This document shows, piece after piece, positions 1-58,096 of a stretch of 64,000 bases of DNA; position 1 is the stretch's first letter; each line of letters starts with the position of its first letter. The stretch comes from Escherichia coli (GTDB taxonomy: Bacteria > Pseudomonadota > Gammaproteobacteria > Enterobacterales > Enterobacteriaceae), in NCBI RefSeq assembly GCF_030013595.1, contig NZ_CP122768.1. One strand, given 5' to 3'. The notes under the pieces were generated by a model that did no database searches, was not told the origin of the DNA, and worked only from the letters and a program-made list of their open reading frames with translations. A program made the translations under genes and the position numbers.

Positions 1-788
1 ACTTCGCCGAGCATGAACTGACTGCGCAATGCATAATGAAAGTAATATGGTCAATGGTTCTTTCCCATCTTAATGGAAAACGTCAATCACAAGAACGTAG
101 GGAACCGCTTGAGCTTTATAGAATTTACTTCTATGACTGTCCACCACTCGACATTCAAACACGCCTTCCACTTCCTGAGCCTGGCAATAAGACGCCTGGT
201 CGCAAGAATTTCAAACTCGAAAAATCATATATTCTGAGAACGGAGCTGCATGAAGAGTTAAGAAAAACTCGAAAAACAGCCTTAAGATTAGGGAATCTTG
301 TTGATAATAAGCGATGGCAACTAACTACATTCTCCCTTGATGCTCTGATGAAAGGAACGAAAAAATGGGATGAACTGACAAATGATGATTTTTACTATGA
401 CATCAAACAAAAACAAGTTGATATCAAGCTAGGGATGGATATCACGACTTTAGCTTATGAAAAACTTGTTGATGTAATTGTCCTTGTTGCTGGGGACTCA
501 GACTTTGTGCCTGCCGCCAAACACGCCAGAATTAAAGGTATTGATTTTATTCTTGATCCACTAAGACAGAATGTTACCCCATCACTGTCAGAGCACATTG
601 ATGGAGTTCAGTCATACAGCTTGATATCAGGACTTGCCGATGCTTTACATGTTGAGCCAGACCCGGCACCTGACTGGTGGGAAGATCGAAAAAAAGGCAA
701 GCCTAGAGGAAAAAACAATAGCGGTAAACGCAGGTATGGAAACACTCAAGCTGAGTCAGCAAAGAAACATCAAAGAAATAAACGATAA
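1..788 (+). CDS. NYN/LabA-like (PIN-type nuclease fold) domain protein with basic C-terminal tail; immunity-region accessory gene; possibly 5'-truncated by window edge (first ATG at 36, frame open to position 3)
   Basis: 250-aa ORF; motif VLVAGDSDFVPAAKHARIKGIDF typical of NYN/LabA domains; lies upstream of pL/nutL/N, same strand, followed by terminator. Confidence 0.55.
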   Translation, partial: FAEHELTAQCIMKVIWSMVLSHLNGKRQSQERREPLELYRIYFYDCPPLDIQTRLPLPEPGNKTPGRKNFKLEKSYILRTELHEELRKTRKTALRLGNLVDNKRWQLTTFSLDALMKGTKKWDELTNDDFYYDIKQKQVDIKLGMDITTLAYEKLVDVIVLVAGDSDFVPAAKHARIKGIDFILDPLRQNVTPSLSEHIDGVQSYSLISGLADALHVEPDPAPDWWEDRKKGKPRGKNNSGKRRYGNTQAESAKKHQRNKR

Positions 789-796
789 TCCCATCA

Positions 797-823
797 ACCC
801 GGCCACCGAGCCGGGTTTTCTTT
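797..823 (+). terminator. Rho-independent terminator after immunity-region ORF
   Basis: ACCCGG...CCGGGT 6-bp stem followed by TTTTCTTT. Confidence 0.5.
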
Positions 824-1008
824 GCCTCACGCCCCCACCTAAAGACACATAACCAAATGTATTTATTGAAAAATAAATAGATACAACTCACTAAACCACG
901 CAATTCTGATCTCTCCTTACATCGCCGAGGCGATACACCCACGCTAAAAAACAACACTATTAAATACAAAGCGTTATAAAAAATCACCCCATTTTAGAAC
1001 AAATTGTA

Positions 1009-1037
1009 TTGACCCAATAAAGTACATATCGTACTAT
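1009..1037 (+). promoter_or_regulatory. Candidate pL promoter (-35 TTGACC, 17-bp spacer, -10 TACTAT)
   Basis: Sigma70-like hexamers about 45 nt upstream of nutL boxA and about 190 nt upstream of N start. Confidence 0.35.
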
Positions 1038-1083
1038 TTAACCGTCAGCAGGACGCTGTAAGCCAAACGGAGCAGACTGGCAG

Positions 1084-1129
1084 GCTCTTTAAACAACGTC
1101 GAACACTCGACTACGTGGCTGAAAAGCCA
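1084..1129 (+). promoter_or_regulatory. nutL-like site: boxA (GCTCTTTAAACAA, 1084-1096) plus boxB-like hairpin (TGGCT-GAAA-AGCCA, 1116-1129)
   Basis: boxA nearly identical to the rrn/lambda boxA consensus; small GNRA-looped hairpin about 20 nt downstream, in the N leader. Confidence 0.45.
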
Positions 1130-1227
1130 GATCACCCAACCATATAAGCTGTGGGATGCAATGCCGAAGCAACCGTCTCAGGAGGAGCTTCGAGATTGCA
1201 TCGCCAAAGTTTATTCGGGAGGAATCT

Positions 1228-1500
1228 ATGTCCAGAAAAACAGAATTTAAAGGCACCGCAGCTTCTCGCCGTAGAGCTCGTCGTGCAAACCTGCAAAGTC
1301 AGGAGGCGATCAGCTCTGACAAGCTACACAGGCCAACCCCTTCACGAGTGGTCTTACAATGCAAACGCAAACCAGTAATGAGAGCAGAAGTAATAACACT
1401 GACAACGTTGACCAGAAAATATGAAGGCTCAACTTGTCTTCCAAATGTAGCCATTTACGCGGCAGGCTACAGGAAATCCAAACAGCTGACAGCAAGATGA
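1228..1500 (+). CDS. N: Antitermination protein N, non-lambda type (933W / P22 gp24-like)
   Basis: 90 aa; N-terminal arginine-rich motif (GTAASRRRARRANL); C-terminus ...CLPNVAIYAAGYRKSKQLTAR resembles recalled P22 gp24/933W N; GGAGG SD 5 nt upstream. Confidence 0.7.
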   Translation: MSRKTEFKGTAASRRRARRANLQSQEAISSDKLHRPTPSRVVLQCKRKPVMRAEVITLTTLTRKYEGSTCLPNVAIYAAGYRKSKQLTAR

Positions 1501-1558
1501 CTTGTGTTGGTCGCCAGAAAATGAAATTAGGCAGCAAACCACTTATTTGAGGTGAGAT

Positions 1559-1645
1559 ATGGAAGAAGAATTTGAAGAGTTCGAAGAGCATCCTCAGGAT
1601 GTGATGGAACAATACCAGGACTATCCGTATGACTACGACTATTGA
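1559..1645 (+). CDS. Small acidic ORF (28 aa, MEEEFEEFEEHPQDVMEQYQDYPYDYDY), lambda orf28-like
   Basis: ATG 1559 to TGA 1643-1645; position between N and ral. Confidence 0.35.
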   Translation: MEEEFEEFEEHPQDVMEQYQDYPYDYDY

Positions 1646-1829
1646 TACAAATCAATGGTGTGGACAATTCAAACGATGCAATGGATGCAAGCTGCAATCG
1701 GAATGCATGGTTAAGCCTGAAGAAATGTTTCCTGTAATGGAAGATGGGAAATATGTCGATAAATGGGCAATACGAACGACGGCAATGATTGCCAGAGAAC
1801 TTGGTAAACAGAACAACAAAGCTGCCTGA
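1629..1829 (+). CDS. ral: Ral (restriction alleviation)
   Basis: 66-aa ORF matching recalled lambda Ral length and position. Confidence 0.7.
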   Translation: MTTTIDTNQWCGQFKRCNGCKLQSECMVKPEEMFPVMEDGKYVDKWAIRTTAMIARELGKQNNKAA

Positions 1830-1965
1830 TAGTGGCCTTTATTTTTGGCATAAATAACAGAATAAACACTGCACTGTGTATTCATTCCAACGAGTGAATA
1901 CACGGAGCAATGTCGCTCGTAACTAAACAGGAGCCGACTTGTTCTGATTATTGGAAATCTTCTTT

Positions 1966-1992
1966 GCCCTCCAGTGTGAGGGCGATTTTTTA
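1966..1992 (+). terminator. Rho-independent terminator in pL operon
   Basis: GCCCTC-cagtgt-GAGGGC hairpin followed by T-run. Confidence 0.45.
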
Positions 1993-2011
1993 TCTATGAG
2001 GATATGAATAG

Positions 2012-2380
2012 ATGTCAAACATCAAAAAATACATCATTGATTACGACTGGAAAGCATCAATAGAAATTGAAATCGACCATGACTTAATGACAGAGGAAAA
2101 ACTTCACAAGATTAATAATTTCTGGTCAGACTCTGAATACCGACTCAATAAACACGGCTCTGTATTAAATGCTGTATTAATCATGCTGGCGCAACATGCT
2201 CTGCTTATAGCAATTTCAAGCGACTTAAATGCATATGGTGTTGTGTGTGAGTTCGACTGGAATGATGGAAATGGTCAGGAAGGATGGCCTACAATGGATG
2301 GTAGCGAAGGAATAAGAATTACCGATATCGATACATCAGGAATATTTGATTCAGATGATATGACTATCAAAGCCGCCTGA
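2012..2380 (+). CDS. ea10: Ea10-like early protein
   Basis: 122-aa ORF in lambda ea10 position and size. Confidence 0.65.
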   Translation: MSNIKKYIIDYDWKASIEIEIDHDLMTEEKLHKINNFWSDSEYRLNKHGSVLNAVLIMLAQHALLIAISSDLNAYGVVCEFDWNDGNGQEGWPTMDGSEGIRITDIDTSGIFDSDDMTIKAA

Positions 2381-2452
2381 GCGCGGCGTTACCGCATACC
2401 AATAACGCTTCACTCGAGGCGTTTTTCGTTATGTATAAATAAGGAGCACACC

Positions 2453-2617
2453 ATGCAATATGCCATTGCAGGGTGGCCTGTTGCTGGCTGCCCTTCCGAA
2501 TCTTTACTTGAACGAATCACCCGTAAATTACGTGACGGATGGAAACGCCTTATCGACATACTTAATCAGCCAGGAGTCCCAAAAAATGGATCAAACACTT
2601 ATGGCTATCCAGACTAA
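2453..2617 (+). CDS. cIII: CIII (FtsH/HflB inhibitor)
   Basis: 54 aa [54 protein letters not shown]; matches recalled lambda CIII. Confidence 0.85.
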   Translation: MQYAIAGWPVAGCPSESLLERITRKLRDGWKRLIDILNQPGVPKNGSNTYGYPD

Positions 2618-2729
2618 ATTCACTATCGCCACTTTTATTGGCGATGAAAAGATGTTTCGTGAAGCCGTCGACGCTTATAAAAAATGGATATTAATGCTGA
2701 AACTGAGATCAAGCAAAAGCATTCACTAA
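2586..2729 (+). CDS. kil: Kil (host-killing, FtsZ inhibitor)
   Basis: 47 aa, overlaps cIII 3' end as in lambda. Confidence 0.75.
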
Positions 2730-2804
2730 CCCCCTTTCCTGTTTTCCTAATCAGCCTGGCATTTCGCGGGCGCTATTTTCACAGCCATTTTCAGGAGTTC
2801 AGCC

Positions 2805-3101
2805 ATGAACGCTTATTACATTCAGGATCGTCTTGAGGCTCAGAGCTGGGCGCGTCACTACCAGCAGATCGCCCGTGAAGAGAAAGAGGCAGAACTGGCA
2901 GACGACATGGAAAAAGGCCTGCCCCAGCACCTGTTTGAATCGCTATGCATCGATCATTTGCAACGCCACGGGGCCAGCAAAAAAGCCATTACCCGTGCGT
3001 TTGATGACGATGTTGAGTTTCAGGAGCGCATGGCAGAACACATCCGGTACATGGTTGAAACCATTGCTCACCACCAAGTTGATATTGATTCAGAGGTATA
3101 A
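2805..3101 (+). CDS. gam: Gam (RecBCD inhibitor), short form
   Basis: 98 aa [21 protein letters not shown]...; AGGAG SD 7 nt upstream. Confidence 0.9.
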
Positions 3102-3106
3102 AACGG

Positions 3107-3892
3107 ATGAGTACAGCACTCGCAACGCTGGCAGGGAAGCTGGCTGAACGTGTCGGCATGGATTCTGTCGACCCACAGGAACTGATCACCACTCTTCGCC
3201 AGACGGCATTTAAAGGTGATGCCAGCGATGCGCAGTTCATCGCATTGTTGATCGTCGCCAACCAGTACGGCCTTAATCCGTGGACGAAAGAAATTTACGC
3301 CTTCCCTGATAAGCAGAACGGCATCGTTCCGGTGGTGGGCGTTGATGGCTGGTCCCGCATCATCAATGAAAACCAGCAGTTTGATGGCATGGACTTTGAG
3401 CAGGACAATGAATCCTGTACATGCCGGATTTACCGCAAGGACCGTAATCATCCGATCTGCGTTACCGAATGGATGGATGAATGCCGCCGCGAACCATTCA
3501 AAACTCGCGAAGGCAGAGAAATCACGGGGCCGTGGCAGTCGCATCCCAAACGGATGTTACGGCATAAAGCCATGATTCAGTGTGCCCGTCTGGCCTTCGG
3601 ATTTGCTGGTATCTATGACAAGGATGAAGCCGAGCGCATTGTCGAAAATACTGCATACACTGCAGAACGCCAGCCGGAACGCGACATCACTCCGGTTAAC
3701 GATGAAACCATGCAGGAGATTAACACTCTGCTGATCGCCCTGGATAAAACATGGGATGACGACTTATTGCCGCTCTGTTCCCAGATATTTCGCCGCGACA
3801 TTCGCGCATCGTCAGAACTGACACAGGCCGAAGCAGTGAAAGCTCTTGGATTCCTGAAACAGAAAGCCTCTGAACAGAAGGTGGCTGCATGA
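3107..3892 (+). CDS. bet: Bet (Red-beta single-strand annealing protein)
   Basis: 261 aa, matches recalled lambda Bet. Confidence 0.95.
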
Positions 3893-4569
3893 CACCGGAC
3901 ATTATCCTGCAGCGTACCGGGATCGACGTGAGAGCTGTCGAACAGGGGGATGATGCGTGGCACAAATTACGGCTCGGCGTCATCACCGCTTCAGAAGTTC
4001 ACAATGTGATAGCAAAACCCCGCTCCGGAAAGAAATGGCCTGACATGAAAATGTCCTACTTCCACACCCTGCTTGCCGAGGTTTGCACCGGTGTGGCTCC
4101 GGAAGTTAACGCTAAGGCGCTGGCCTGGGGAAAACAGTACGAGAACGACGCCAGAGCCCTCTTTGAGTTCACTTCCGGCGTGAATGTTACTGAATCCCCG
4201 ATCATCTATCGCGACGAAAGTATGCGCACCGCCTGCTCTCCCGATGGTTTATGCAGTGACGGCAACGGCCTTGAACTGAAATGCCCGTTTACCTCCCGGG
4301 ATTTCATGAAATTCCGGCTCGGTGGTTTCGAGGCCATAAAGTCGGCTTACATGGCCCAGGTGCAGTACAGCATGTGGGTGACGCGAAAAGATGCCTGGTA
4401 CTTTGCCAACTATGACCCACGAATGAAGCGTGAAGGCCTGCATTATGTCGTGGTTGAGCGGGATGAAAATTACATGGCGAGTTTTGACGAGATGGTGCCG
4501 GAGTTCATCGAAAAAATGGACGAGGCACTGGCTGAAATTGGTTTTGTATTTGGGGAGCAATGGCGATGA
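3889..4569 (+). CDS. exo: Exo (lambda exonuclease, Red-alpha)
   Basis: 226 aa, matches recalled lambda Exo; overlaps bet stop. Confidence 0.95.
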
Positions 4570-4748
4570 AGCATCCTCACGATAATATCCGGGTAGGTGC
4601 GATCACTTTCGTCTACTCCGTTACAAAGCGAGGCTGGGTATTTCCCGGCCTTTCTGTTACCCGAAATCCCCTGAAAGCACAGCGGCTGGCTGAGGAGATA
4701 AATAATAAACGGGGAGCTGTATGCACAAAGCATCTCCTGTTGAGTTAA
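4566..4748 (+). CDS. exo-xis region small protein, orf60a-like
   Basis: 60 aa from second in-frame Met; position immediately after exo. Confidence 0.45.
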
Positions 4749-4912
4749 GAACGAGCATTGAGATGGCACATAGCCTCGCTCAAATTGGAGTCAGGTTTGT
4801 GCCAATACCAGTAGAAACAGACGAAGAATTTCATACGTTAGCCGCATCCCTTTCACAAAAGCTGGAAATGATGGTGGCGAAAGCAGAAGCAGATGAGAGA
4901 GACCAGGTATGA
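4721..4912 (+). CDS. exo-xis region small protein, orf63-like
   Basis: 63-aa ORF. Confidence 0.5.
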   Translation: MHKASPVELRTSIEMAHSLAQIGVRFVPIPVETDEEFHTLAASLSQKLEMMVAKAEADERDQV

Positions 4913-4988
4913 CAACCACTGAATGCATTTTTCTGGCAGCGGGCTTCATATTCTGTGTGCTTATGCTTGCCGACATGGGACTTGTTCA

Positions 4989-5204
4989 ATGACACATCAG
5001 CAAGAAAACGCCCTTCGCAGTATTGCCCGTCAGGCTAATTCTGAAATCAAAAAAGCCAGACAGCAGTTTCCGGATAAAAACGTCGATGACATTTGCCGTA
5101 GCGTACTGAAGAAGCACCGCGAAACGGTAACGCTGATGGGATTCACACCGACTCATTTAAGCCTGGCGATCGGCATGTTAAACGGCGTCTTTAAGGAACG
5201 GTGA
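4989..5204 (+). CDS. exo-xis region small protein, orf61-like (start uncertain; frame open from 4923)
   Basis: ORF in expected position; start codon choice unresolved. Confidence 0.35.
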   Translation: MTHQQENALRSIARQANSEIKKARQQFPDKNVDDICRSVLKKHRETVTLMGFTPTHLSLAIGMLNGVFKER

Positions 5205-5302
5205 GCATGAAAAACAAAATCATCATGGAGCTACAGGCTCCTTTTTTATTATTCGCATTCACCCTCAAGCGTATTAACCAACAATTCAGGGATTAATGAA
5301 AG

Positions 5303-5524
5303 ATGGCAGACATCATTGATTCAGCATCAGAAATTGAAGAATTACAGCGCAACACAGCAATAAAAATGCGCCGCCTGAACCACCAGGCTATATCTGCCAC
5401 TCATTGTTGTGAGTGTGGCGATCCGATAGATGAACGAAGACGCTTGGCCGTTCAGGGTTGTCGGACTTGTGCAAGTTGCCAGGAGGATCTGGAACTTATC
5501 AGTAAACAGAGAGGTTCGAAGTGA
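5303..5524 (+). CDS. exo-xis region C4 zinc-finger protein (DksA/TraR-like), orf73-like
   Basis: 73 aa with CxxC...CxxC (CCECGDPIDERRRLAVQGCRTCASC). Confidence 0.6.
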   Translation: MADIIDSASEIEELQRNTAIKMRRLNHQAISATHCCECGDPIDERRRLAVQGCRTCASCQEDLELISKQRGSK

Positions 5525-6069
5525 GCGAAATTAACTCTCAGGCACTGCGTGAAGCGGCAGAGCAGGCAATGCATGACGACTGGGGATTTGACGCAGACCT
5601 TTTCCATGAATTGGTAACACCATCGATTGTGCTGGAACTGCTGGATGAACGGGAAAGAAACCAGCAATACATCAAACGCCGCGACCAGGAGAACGAGGAT
5701 ATTGCGCTAACAGTAGGGAAACTGCGTGTTGAGCTTGAAACAGCAAAATCAAAACTCAACGAGCAGCGTGAGTATTACGAAGGTGTTATCTCGGATGGGA
5801 GTAAGCGTATTGCTAAACTGGAAAGCAACGAAGTCCGTGAAGACGGAAACCAGTTTCTTGTTGTTCGCCATCCTGGGAAGACTCCTGTTATCAAGCACTG
5901 CACTGGTGACCTGGAAGAGTTTCTGCGGCAGTTAATCGAACAAGACCCGTTAGTAACTATCGACATCATTACGCATCGCTATTACGGGGTTGGAGGTCAA
6001 TGGGTTCAGGATGCAGGTGAGTATCTGCATATGATGTCTGACGCTGGCATTCGCATCAAAGGAGAGTGA
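5521..6069 (+). CDS. ea22: Ea22
   Basis: 182-aa ORF in lambda ea22 position and size. Confidence 0.75.
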   Translation: MSEINSQALREAAEQAMHDDWGFDADLFHELVTPSIVLELLDERERNQQYIKRRDQENEDIALTVGKLRVELETAKSKLNEQREYYEGVISDGSKRIAKLESNEVREDGNQFLVVRHPGKTPVIKHCTGDLEEFLRQLIEQDPLVTIDIITHRYYGVGGQWVQDAGEYLHMMSDAGIRIKGE

Positions 6070-9540: not shown

Positions 9541-10309
<769 letters not shown>

Positions 10310-33744: not shown

Positions 33745-34788
33745 TTATCCACGTAGTGTAGCCGCAAAATCCAGCATACGATTGAGCGGCACCAGCGCCC
33801 TCTCTCGCAGCCTTTCATCAACATGAACCTCGTGATTGCTTCCTTCCTGTTCTAATGCCTCTGCGATGGCCTGAAGGCCATTCATGGCCATCCACGGACA
33901 ATGCGCGCAGCTGCGGCAGGTTGCACCCTCACCTGCGGTTGGTGCTTCCAGTAACTCTTTATCTGGCACCGCCTGCTGCATTTTGTAGAAAATACCCCGA
34001 TCGGTTGCCACAATAAGCCTCTGATGTGGCAATGTTTTCGCAGCAGCGATCAGTTGACTGGTGGAACCGACCGCATCCGCCATATCGACAATAGCTTGTG
34101 GTGATTCTGGATGCACCAGTATGGCAGCATCCGGGTATTCTTCTTGCAAGCGGGTTAACGCCTGAGTCTTAAATTCATCATGCACAATGCAGGCACCCTG
34201 CCAGCATAAAATGTCTGCGCCCGTCTGTTTTTGCACGTAACGCCCCAGATGTTTGTCGGGAGCCCAGATGATTTTTTCACCCAAACTATCCAGATGATCA
34301 ATAAGTTCGACAGCAATGCTTGAAGTTACCACCCAATCTGCCCGCGCTTTTACCGCAGCAGAAGTGTTGGCGTAGACGACGACAGTATGATCGGGATGGG
34401 CATCGCAAAATGCGTTAAATTCTTCAACTGGGCAGCCGAGATCCAGTGAACATTCAGCCTGAAGTGTCGGCATCAGAATTGTTTTTTCCGGACTGAGAAT
34501 TTTGGCGGTTTCTCCCATAAATCTCACCCCAGCGACTAACAACGTAGAAGCGGGATGCTTTGCACCGAAGCGCGCCATTTCCAGAGAATCAGAAATACAG
34601 CCACCGGTTTCTTCTGCCAGTTGTTGAATTTCGGGATCGGTATAGTAATGGGCAACCATCACCGCATTACGTTCTTTTAGCAGACGTTTTATCTTCTCGC
34701 GGTAATACGCTTTTTCATCAATGCTTAACGGCGTCGGCTTCGGGGGGAAAGGATAAATCGCCGTGTCTGGATCAAACATCACGCTCAT
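33745..34788 (-). CDS. nadA: Quinolinate synthase
   Basis: 347 aa. Confidence 0.95.
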
Positions 34789-34878: not shown

Positions 34879-35190
34879 AGATAGTCGAATGGTGGGGAAA
34901 AGTCACTCGAATTACGTATGAGATGCCGAATGCCACACTTTGCGTCTTATTTCTCCGACGTAAAGTTGTTTACGCAGCAAACGCGGAGTATGTCATCTGG
35001 GTTAAGAATTGAAATTGAGAGATGCCTGAATAGCAAAAAAGCGCCTTTAGGGCGCTTTTTTACATTGGTGGGTCGTGCAGGATGACTCGCTTCGCTCGCC
35101 CTTCGGGCCGTCGCCGCGAGCGGCTCCGTTGTTTCGCTGCGCTCAACTCAAACCTGCTGCAGGTTCGAATCTTTGAGTATCGCAGATAGC

Positions 35191-35218
35191 AAAAAAGCGC
35201 CTTTAGGGCGCTTTTTTA
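35191..35218 (-). terminator. Rho-independent terminator after tRNA cluster (second copy at 35033-35061)
   Basis: AAAAAAGCGCC-ttta-GGGCGCTTTTTT symmetric hairpin. Confidence 0.6.
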
Positions 35219-54250: not shown

Positions 54251-54398
54251 AAATCCGAATACTTTTAGCCAACTGACATCCCGTCACTTATTGCAGTTCA
54301 ACACTTCAGCTATTTGTAAGGTTGTAATAGCAGGTAGATGCCTGAATCTCTATTCAGGCATCTACTTCTCCTGATTCTGATTTATCGCCGCGCACCTG

Positions 54399-58065: not shown

Positions 58066-58096
58066 ACTGCGCCTGGCATCCCGCCAGGCGCAGGTT
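58066..58096. terminator. Bidirectional terminator between adenosyltransferase and LysR genes
   Basis: CTGCGCCTGGC-atcc-CGCCAGGCGCAG hairpin with flanking A/T runs. Confidence 0.5.

Follow-up and report, generated by a model that had tools for sequence, protein, structure and literature searches.

The window, by which we mean the whole 64,000-nt stretch of E. coli DNA analysed here, carries on its + strand the leftward early (pL) operon of a lambdoid phage. The genes and signals surrounding the feature under study are collected in Table 1; gam, bet and exo lie farther downstream in the same operon. Directly upstream of the N gene, on the same strand and at the site occupied by rexA/rexB in lambda, there is an ORF of 250 aa (36-788) with a nuclease-like NYN domain (PF01936, E = 6e-9), which is possibly a prophage-encoded defence or accessory gene. 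This report concerns the spacer between ral and ea10 (1830-2011), where an earlier sequence-only reading had placed a perfect 9-bp inverted repeat followed, about 60 nt downstream, by a terminator hairpin. Both placements are correct, the distance to the terminator hairpin being about 61 nt. The same reading had called for a comparison with the equivalent region of lambda, and this shows that the spacer and reference lambda are identical except at 1996 and 2009, and that the hairpin corresponds to lambda 34013-34040 on the complementary strand. The lambda reference records have no annotated feature in the ral-ea10 spacer, and an Rfam search (Rfam 15) of positions 1-6000 of the window and of the variant loci described below returned the cIII thermometer only, leaving the hairpin and the adjacent small RNA unmatched. 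Two other terminator-like sites lie on the + strand in this region: a hairpin with a T-run between ea10 and cIII, ahead of the cIII thermoregulator RNA (2404-2423), and a weak site consisting of a 5-bp stem followed by CTTTATTTTT (1821-1836), which lies 40 nt ahead of the hairpin and overlaps the stop codon of ral.

Table 1. Features of the pL operon around the ral-ea10 spacer, in positions of the window.
Feature	Position	Strand	Basis and remarks
N-type antiterminator	1156-1500	+	PF25694
ral CDS	1629-1829	+	66-aa ORF; annotated Ral in lambda records matching at ≥98.6%; upstream gene in the pL operon
Lower stem, 5' strand ACACUGCACU	1866-1875	+	Pairs with 1904-1913 in the minimum-energy fold
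Hairpin version A (the reported repeat)	1876-1903	+	9-bp arms, inner pairs 1885-1887 with 1892-1894, CAAC loop; covariation over four versions
Predicted 28-nt double-cut product	1877-1904	+	Predicted from the R1.1 distal-box register; cuts between 1876 and 1877 and between 1904 and 1905
Stem top: A1884-U1895, U1885-G1894, U1886-A1893	1884-1895	+	Matches the RNase III distal box (UG, UA) plus the flanking A-U
PreS (LPR1), 88-nt form	1905-1992	+	Primers P810/P1103 and P1104; ~88-nt band; single match in the window
~68-nt PreS form (LPR1-S), approximate	1925-1992	+	5' end estimated from band size, counted from the 3' end
CTG to GAC in seed mutant LPR1-M1	1944-1946	+	Primers P838/P839; marks the target-pairing region
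Intrinsic terminator tL2a	1964-1991	+	Terminator scan; hairpin 1964-1985, T-run 1986-1991; PreS 3' end and Hfq-binding module
ea10 CDS (DUF2528)	2012-2380	+	ORF; downstream gene
cIII thermometer RNA	2440-2498	+	RF01804, 88.5 bits

The segment between the hairpin and the terminator is occupied by a published small RNA (sRNA). LPR1, since renamed PreS, is an Hfq-bound sRNA that maps between ea10 and ral and has tL2a as its 3' end. It gives bands of ~88 nt and ~68 nt, the ~68-nt form (LPR1-S) being the more abundant, is produced only in lytic phage and only with pL derepressed, and activates translation of host dnaN, which raises DnaN and aids phage replication (Silverman et al., bioRxiv 10.1101/2024.10.31.621285). 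The primers used in that study for cloning and in vitro transcription of PreS begin GAGCAATGTCGCTCG (P810/P1103) and end ...GATTTTTTA (P1104), while the hairpin, a PreS promoter and the nuclease generating the 5' end all go unmentioned in the preprint. The sequence-only reading therefore had the spacing to the terminator right but missed the sRNA filling it, and it is because the adjoining ~60 nt and terminator are PreS that a likely purpose for the hairpin comes into view. The last base of the perfect stem is 1903 and the published 5' end of PreS is G1905, 2 nt further on; the latter position comes from the cloning primers and the ~88-nt gel band and may be off by 1-2 bases. The perfect stem falls outside the boundaries of mature PreS; in the lower helix, GCAC at 1871-1874 is paired with GAGC, the four bases with which PreS begins.

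The hairpin itself reads GTGTATTCA-TTCCAACGAG-TGAATACAC, and the 9-bp repeat is perfect as claimed, with GTGTATTCA (1876-1884) complementary to TGAATACAC (1895-1903) across a 10-nt spacer. Three more pairs extend the stem inward (U1885-G1894, U1886-A1893 and C1887-G1892), making a 12-bp stem capped by the tetraloop CAAC (1888-1891). Outward, complementarity continues to give 22-nt arms (1866-1887 and 1892-1913, 82% complementarity) and a helix of ~22 positions; within its lower part, GCAC at 1871-1874 is the portion retained in every context, and GCAC/GAGC is present in all four versions of the hairpin described below. The predicted RNA folding energy is -14.2 kcal/mol for the 28-mer (1876-1903) and -24.9 kcal/mol for 1864-1915, each with z ~ -7 relative to dinucleotide shuffles, none of 200 of which folds as well. 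The complementary strand of this version is almost as stable, at -24.4 kcal/mol. By itself, a 9-bp repeat is within chance (perfect 9-bp inverted repeats with a 3-12 nt loop number 2.9 +/- 2.0 in shuffled windows and 30 in the real one), and the case for its reality is made by conservation and covariation. Several of these 30 repeats are longer nested hairpins (9605-9631, 35035-35061, 35191-35217, 54335-54364 and 58067-58093).

A first finding is that the hairpin is a constant companion of PreS. The sequence-only reading had named absence from related phages, together with lack of structure in vivo, as what would count against it; we find the 9-bp hairpin at every PreS locus examined. In BLAST searches of phage genomes, many lambdoid phages—including HK97, HK620, HK75, mEpX1, HK106, Stx phages and Salmonella phages—share with the window only the segment 1871-1993, at 96-98% identity, and in these phages the segment is not flanked by ral or ea10 (in HK97, it lies between gp45 and cIII). 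We count 3,199 copies of the module formed by hairpin, PreS and terminator in complete E. coli genomes, spread over 2,238 of 5,426 (~40%) and including Shiga-toxin phages, and there is no annotation at the module in the 60 E. coli genome records listed. Homology between phages has two recurrent boundaries, at 1871 (the helix foot) and at 1905 (the PreS 5' end), and loci in which homology starts at 1905 are not hairpin-free but have a different hairpin at the same position. Collecting loci from viral contigs, species genomes and metagenomes with the PreS 5' sequence alone as anchor, we distinguish four versions: A, that of this window (5' arm GTGTATTCA, loop ttccaacgag, 3' arm TGAATACAC), B (TATAGCAGA, tttacgag, TCTGCTATG), C (TAATGACCA, ttttaatag, TGGTCATTG) and D (TAATGCGGA, ttctgtgat, TCCGCATTG). 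Their stem sequences are unrelated, and yet all have 9-nt arms, all are set between GCAC(Y) and (N)GAGCAAT, and all fold into an identical architecture.

The hairpin is present in 164 of 164 PreS loci with enough upstream sequence (161 perfect, three with one mismatch), a set drawn from viral, genome, annotated E. coli and phage records of which ~80 were retrieved by the hairpin pattern itself. These loci represent at least 30 upstream and at least 15 downstream contexts. A metagenome scan anchored on PreS only gave the same picture, with the hairpin in 114 of 114 true PreS loci (101 version A, 12 version B and one version D), and a fifth version, looked for among these loci and four non-PreS matches, was not found. 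A scan of species-level genomes returned 11 loci, eight of which are PreS loci, all with version A, and three of which are chance matches (L131, L134 and L136). Version B is carried by 92 E. coli genomes. Which version a locus has is independent of its PreS body, of which there are two types, and of its terminator, of which there are several. Among 27 distinct aligned sequences, 98.8% of the cells in the 9-bp helix are paired and eight of the nine pairs differ on both sides. The covariation score of the whole 17-pair structure is 0.408, against 0.124 for column shuffles (0 of 500 reach the observed value) and at most 0.111 for slid partners, figures that overstate independence because the covariation consists of four block replacements and not of many independent substitutions. 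Even with this proviso, the covariation is unambiguous. Within version A, a substitution breaks one pair of the 12-bp stem in seven loci (L135, L141, L145, L197, L205, L234 and L297), and none is compensated.

The collection also contains loci that are noteworthy in their own right. A second PreS body type occurs in four of them (L009, L139, L137 and L143; e.g., L139 ~3500-3650). After the common GAGCAATATCGCTCGTAAC, its middle stem is altered with compensation (ACAGGAGCCGACUUGU to ACGAGGACGACGACUCGU), its seed region is different, and it has other terminators and combines with all four hairpin versions; it may have a different target set. In a 44,120-nt phage contig (L030), two modules lie 1.4 kb apart on the minus strand (7236 and 8633), with hairpins B and A, and the module with hairpin B has lost its terminator. 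In an ETEC chromosome (L125, 2500-2640), the hairpin is interrupted after the equivalent of window position 1896 and PreS is lost; the sequence past the break is unrelated and runs into part of an IS3-family transposase and a group II intron reverse transcriptase. Two metagenome contigs unrelated to each other (L248 ~141-200 and, in reverse complement, L263 ~337-400) have the 19-nt PreS 5' motif GAGCAATNTCGCTCGTAAC with GTTTGTTGT before it and a ribosome-binding site and ATG after it; both lack the PreS body and an upstream hairpin. The small stem-loop GAGC/GCUC at these two places may be an element in its own right. Finally, one locus (L013, minus strand, ~3900-4000 of the reverse complement) keeps version A in the absence of the PreS body and terminator: after GGAGCAAT come the cIII ribosome-binding site and start codon, the hairpin being ~30 nt before cIII. 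As this locus has the hairpin and no PreS, the hairpin may also act independently, e.g., on the stability of neighbouring messages.

Several positions in the alignment bear on the molecule in which the structure forms. U-G pairs at alignment positions 12:41, 13:40, 22:31 and 24:29 fit RNA of the + strand only, as they would be A-C mismatches in RNA of the opposite strand and T-G mismatches in duplex DNA, whether in a cruciform or in a symmetric site for a protein. Because of these U-G pairs and of the freely replaceable stem sequence, we read the element as an RNA hairpin in the pL transcript and not as a DNA palindrome. The proposal that a stem-loop forms in the pL transcript is in this way upheld, by + strand wobbles and by a helix kept through four unrelated stems. 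Judged by comparison across loci, the inverted repeat is a genuine conserved RNA hairpin of the early leftward transcript.

A second finding is the similarity of this hairpin to a known class of RNase III substrates. Two functions had been suggested from the sequence, an RNase III site or a protein-binding site. A sequence-specific protein-binding site is unlikely, the stem sequence being freely replaceable, and an RNase III site is the best-supported reading, through the indirect evidence of a distal box like that of T7 R1.1, a helix of minimal length and a predicted 3' cut at the PreS 5' end. The minimal E. coli RNase III hairpin substrate, derived from T7 R1.1, has a minimum of 11 bp between cut and tetraloop, a distal box consisting of U-A then U-G about 9-10 bp from the cut, with U on the 5' strand and U-G stringently required, and, as proximal box, G-C at position 1 followed by A/U at positions 2-4; the upper stem-loop product of R1.1 is 28 nt long (Pertzev and Nicholson, PMC1540722). 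The RNase III dimer accommodates a helix of ~22 bp (PMC6212723). At the top of our stem, among the 27 distinct sequences, A-U (columns 21:32) and U-A (23:30) are invariant and U-G (22:31) is found in 25. These three pairs, which are identical to bp 8-10 of T7 R1.1, are retained at bp 8-10 in versions A-C, version D having UxU at bp 9. Read from the T7 genome, R1.1 is AAGGUCAUUC-GCAA-GAGUGGCCUUUAU/GAUUG, where the slash marks the cut, presumably at T7 5887, which agrees with the length of the 28-nt product; version A reads UAUUCAUUC-CAAC-GAGUGAAUACACG/GAGCAAU. The top of version A (UCAUUC/GAGUGA) and that of R1.1 (UCAUUC/GAGUGG) are identical over five consecutive pairs. When the two are aligned on the distal box, the 3'-strand cut comes 13 nt after the loop in both, i.e., between 1904 and 1905 in the window. 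This predicted cut coincides with the PreS 5' end given by the primers of Silverman et al. and is consistent with the ~88-nt band.

The remaining requirements are matched to different degrees by the four versions. Version A has exactly 11 bp and a tetraloop above the predicted cut, a continuous helix of 14 bp within the 22-nt arms, and a distal box formed by U1886-A1893 and U1885-G1894, while versions B and C have 10 bp only below the loop. The proximal box fits at all four positions in versions B-D; that of version A has U-A at positions 2 and 4 and so no antideterminant, which would be a G-C or C-G at either place, with a sub-optimal A-U at position 1 and G-C at position 3. Because the 9-nt arm length is fixed, the distance from distal box to cut is constant. 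Between the predicted cuts, both positions are base-paired, a G-C among them, as reported for in vivo double cuts (PMC6212723).

We consider that the repeat is probably an RNase III processing signal of the T7 R1.1 type, which makes the 5' end of PreS. Host RNase III would bind the helix of ~22 positions (1866-1913), positioned by the U-A/U-G distal box just below the loop, and would cut 11 bp below the tetraloop, separating G1904 from G1905 on the 3' strand. On the 5' strand, the enzyme is likely to cut as well, between G1876 and U1877, which would release a 28-nt hairpin. The 3' cut would create the 5'-monophosphate end of 88-nt PreS, whose 3' end is the tL2a terminator, and would at the same time part the N-ral section of the message from the downstream section. 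Trimming to ~68 nt would then be due to a second nuclease, probably RNase E, aided by the new 5' monophosphate. Here, we infer which enzyme acts, which exact bonds it cuts and which of the two processing steps comes first. Several observations speak against the RNase III reading. The main in vivo species of PreS is the 68-nt form, which requires another cut; each version departs from the optimal substrate, by its sub-optimal proximal box (A), by its 10 bp (B and C) or by UxU at the stringent U-G (D); and there are the locus with hairpin but no PreS and the uncompensated pair-breaking substitutions in seven version A loci. A transcription start at 1905 was considered as another origin of the PreS 5' end and rejected, the promoter scan giving no candidate near 1905 and no promoter-like site nearby, and the four 3' arms having no -10-like motif in common.

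The most serious alternative, which we regard as possible but clearly the less probable of the two, is that the hairpin is an uncut structural boundary. RNase E or another single-strand nuclease would cut at its 3' foot and release PreS, and the hairpin would protect the 3' end of the ral message from exonucleases or prevent upstream sequence from mispairing with PreS, for Hfq loading. Many sRNAs are cut from longer transcripts by RNase E, and the 68-nt form must arise from such a cut. Conserved structure with free sequence is moreover what an element of purely structural function requires; for RNase III, versions B-D are on the short side; and L013 retains the hairpin without PreS. However, a generic protective hairpin needs no fixed 9-bp arm, no constant A-U/U-G/U-A top and no proximal box resembling that of R1.1. 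RNase E reportedly prefers A/U-rich single strands with U at +2, and the 88-nt 5' end, where CG is followed by GAG across the cut, is unlike this preference. In version A, this junction (1904 to 1905) is furthermore inside the continuous 14-bp helix and not in a single strand.

Other explanations fare much worse. We consider it very unlikely that the element acts as DNA, be it as a palindrome bound by a dimeric protein, as a cruciform or simply as the joint at which mosaic modules recombine. Phage homology does often start at 1871 or 1905, the hairpin edges, and versions are shuffled relative to both flanks, so recombination occurs here, but this accounts for the shuffling and not for the preserved pairing, arm length and stem top. 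Four unrelated sequences would also demand four binding proteins, yet the versions are independent of the neighbouring genes, and T/G positions that can pair only in + strand RNA spoil the symmetry. An operator-like palindrome was rejected on the same two counts, the four unrelated stems and the T/G positions breaking DNA symmetry. Equally improbable is a transcription signal, whether an intrinsic terminator or pause site of pL or an antisense terminator. The hairpin is stable, lies in an untranslated spacer and, in version A, folds almost as well on the opposite strand; but the + strand continues with GGAGCAAUGUCG, with no U-run, and the terminator scan that called tL2a made no call here, versions B-D have no U-run on the - strand, no gene or promoter-like site points in from the other side, and the wobbles disfavour the - strand. 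An intrinsic terminator was accordingly rejected for want of a U-run after the hairpin. So was an antitermination hairpin of the nut/boxB kind, which has a 5-bp stem, a purine-rich pentaloop and boxA upstream, whereas here there are a 12-bp stem, a CAAC loop, no boxA ahead and no Rfam match at the site. That the repeat is a functionless accident carried along with lambda DNA is next to impossible: ~3 perfect 9-bp inverted repeats are expected in a window of such size, but four compensated versions at the same position effectively refute chance, and the hairpin is present at 100% of PreS loci and, hardly ever disrupted, in ~40% of the complete genomes of E. coli.

PreS itself is already published, and there are well-known examples both of RNase III hairpins and of sRNAs excised from prophage operons. 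Within the literature and databases searched, including Rfam 15 and the lambda records, the hairpin as a PreS processing signal is apparently new. No RNase III site between ral and ea10 is described in that literature, including a 2025 review, although papers of the 1980s on lambda RNA processing might mention one. If correct, an RNase III site at this position gives a testable account of how PreS is excised from the pL transcript and makes the yield of PreS depend on the activity of host RNase III, which changes with growth conditions. The four versions of the hairpin also form a natural experiment on the requirements of RNase III, in which distal box and spacing are kept and the remainder is free, and knowing the parts of the module would improve prophage annotation. 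More speculatively, and in our estimation improbably, the excised 28-nt hairpin (1877-1904) might be a small functional RNA, or the versions might tune the amount of PreS and the fate of the upstream message, a single cut being stabilising and a double cut destroying. Were such tuning true, phages would adjust the dosage of PreS, ral and N by exchanging a processing cassette.

Comparison with known systems shows similarities and differences. T7 R1.1, together with its minimal form uR1.1, is the closest parallel. It too is a hairpin in an intergenic spacer of an early polycistronic phage transcript, and it shares with version A the top five pairs (C-G, U-A, U-G, A-U and C-G, which include the UA/UG distal box) and, at the cut predicted for the latter, 11 bp from cut to tetraloop, 13 nt from loop to 3' cut, an upper product of 28 nt and a downstream fragment beginning with GA. 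However, R1.1 has an internal loop and is cut once, which leaves a protective hairpin on the upstream mRNA, whereas in version A the helix is continuous over the predicted site, which makes a double cut more likely. The downstream product of R1.1 is an mRNA and that of the PreS hairpin an sRNA, the proximal box of version A is weaker than that of R1.1, and cleavage is demonstrated for R1.1 and predicted for the PreS hairpin. A functional analogue is found in DicF, from the dicBF operon of prophage Qin, which exists in two forms, one of 190 nt whose 5' end is generated by RNase III and one of 53 nt produced by RNase E (PMC10448788). DicF resembles PreS in being Hfq-dependent, in lying within a lambdoid early operon with no promoter of its own, in having its 3' end at a terminator and in having a long and a short form, and it is because this two-form pattern parallels that of PreS that we propose RNase III followed by RNase E for the 88- and 68-nt species. 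The two RNAs have no sequence similarity, the RNase III site of DicF is a long-range stem (L177, 281-293 with 339-351) and not a compact R1.1-like hairpin, and dependence on the enzymes is proven for DicF, whereas for PreS we infer it. Lambda itself offers a third case in sib, an RNase III hairpin of the pL transcript located beyond int and overlapping a terminator, cleavage of which opens int mRNA to attack by 3' exonucleases and so determines what becomes of the upstream message. Both sib and the PreS hairpin lie in the pL transcript, but sib releases no sRNA, whereas the hairpin described here would deliver PreS.
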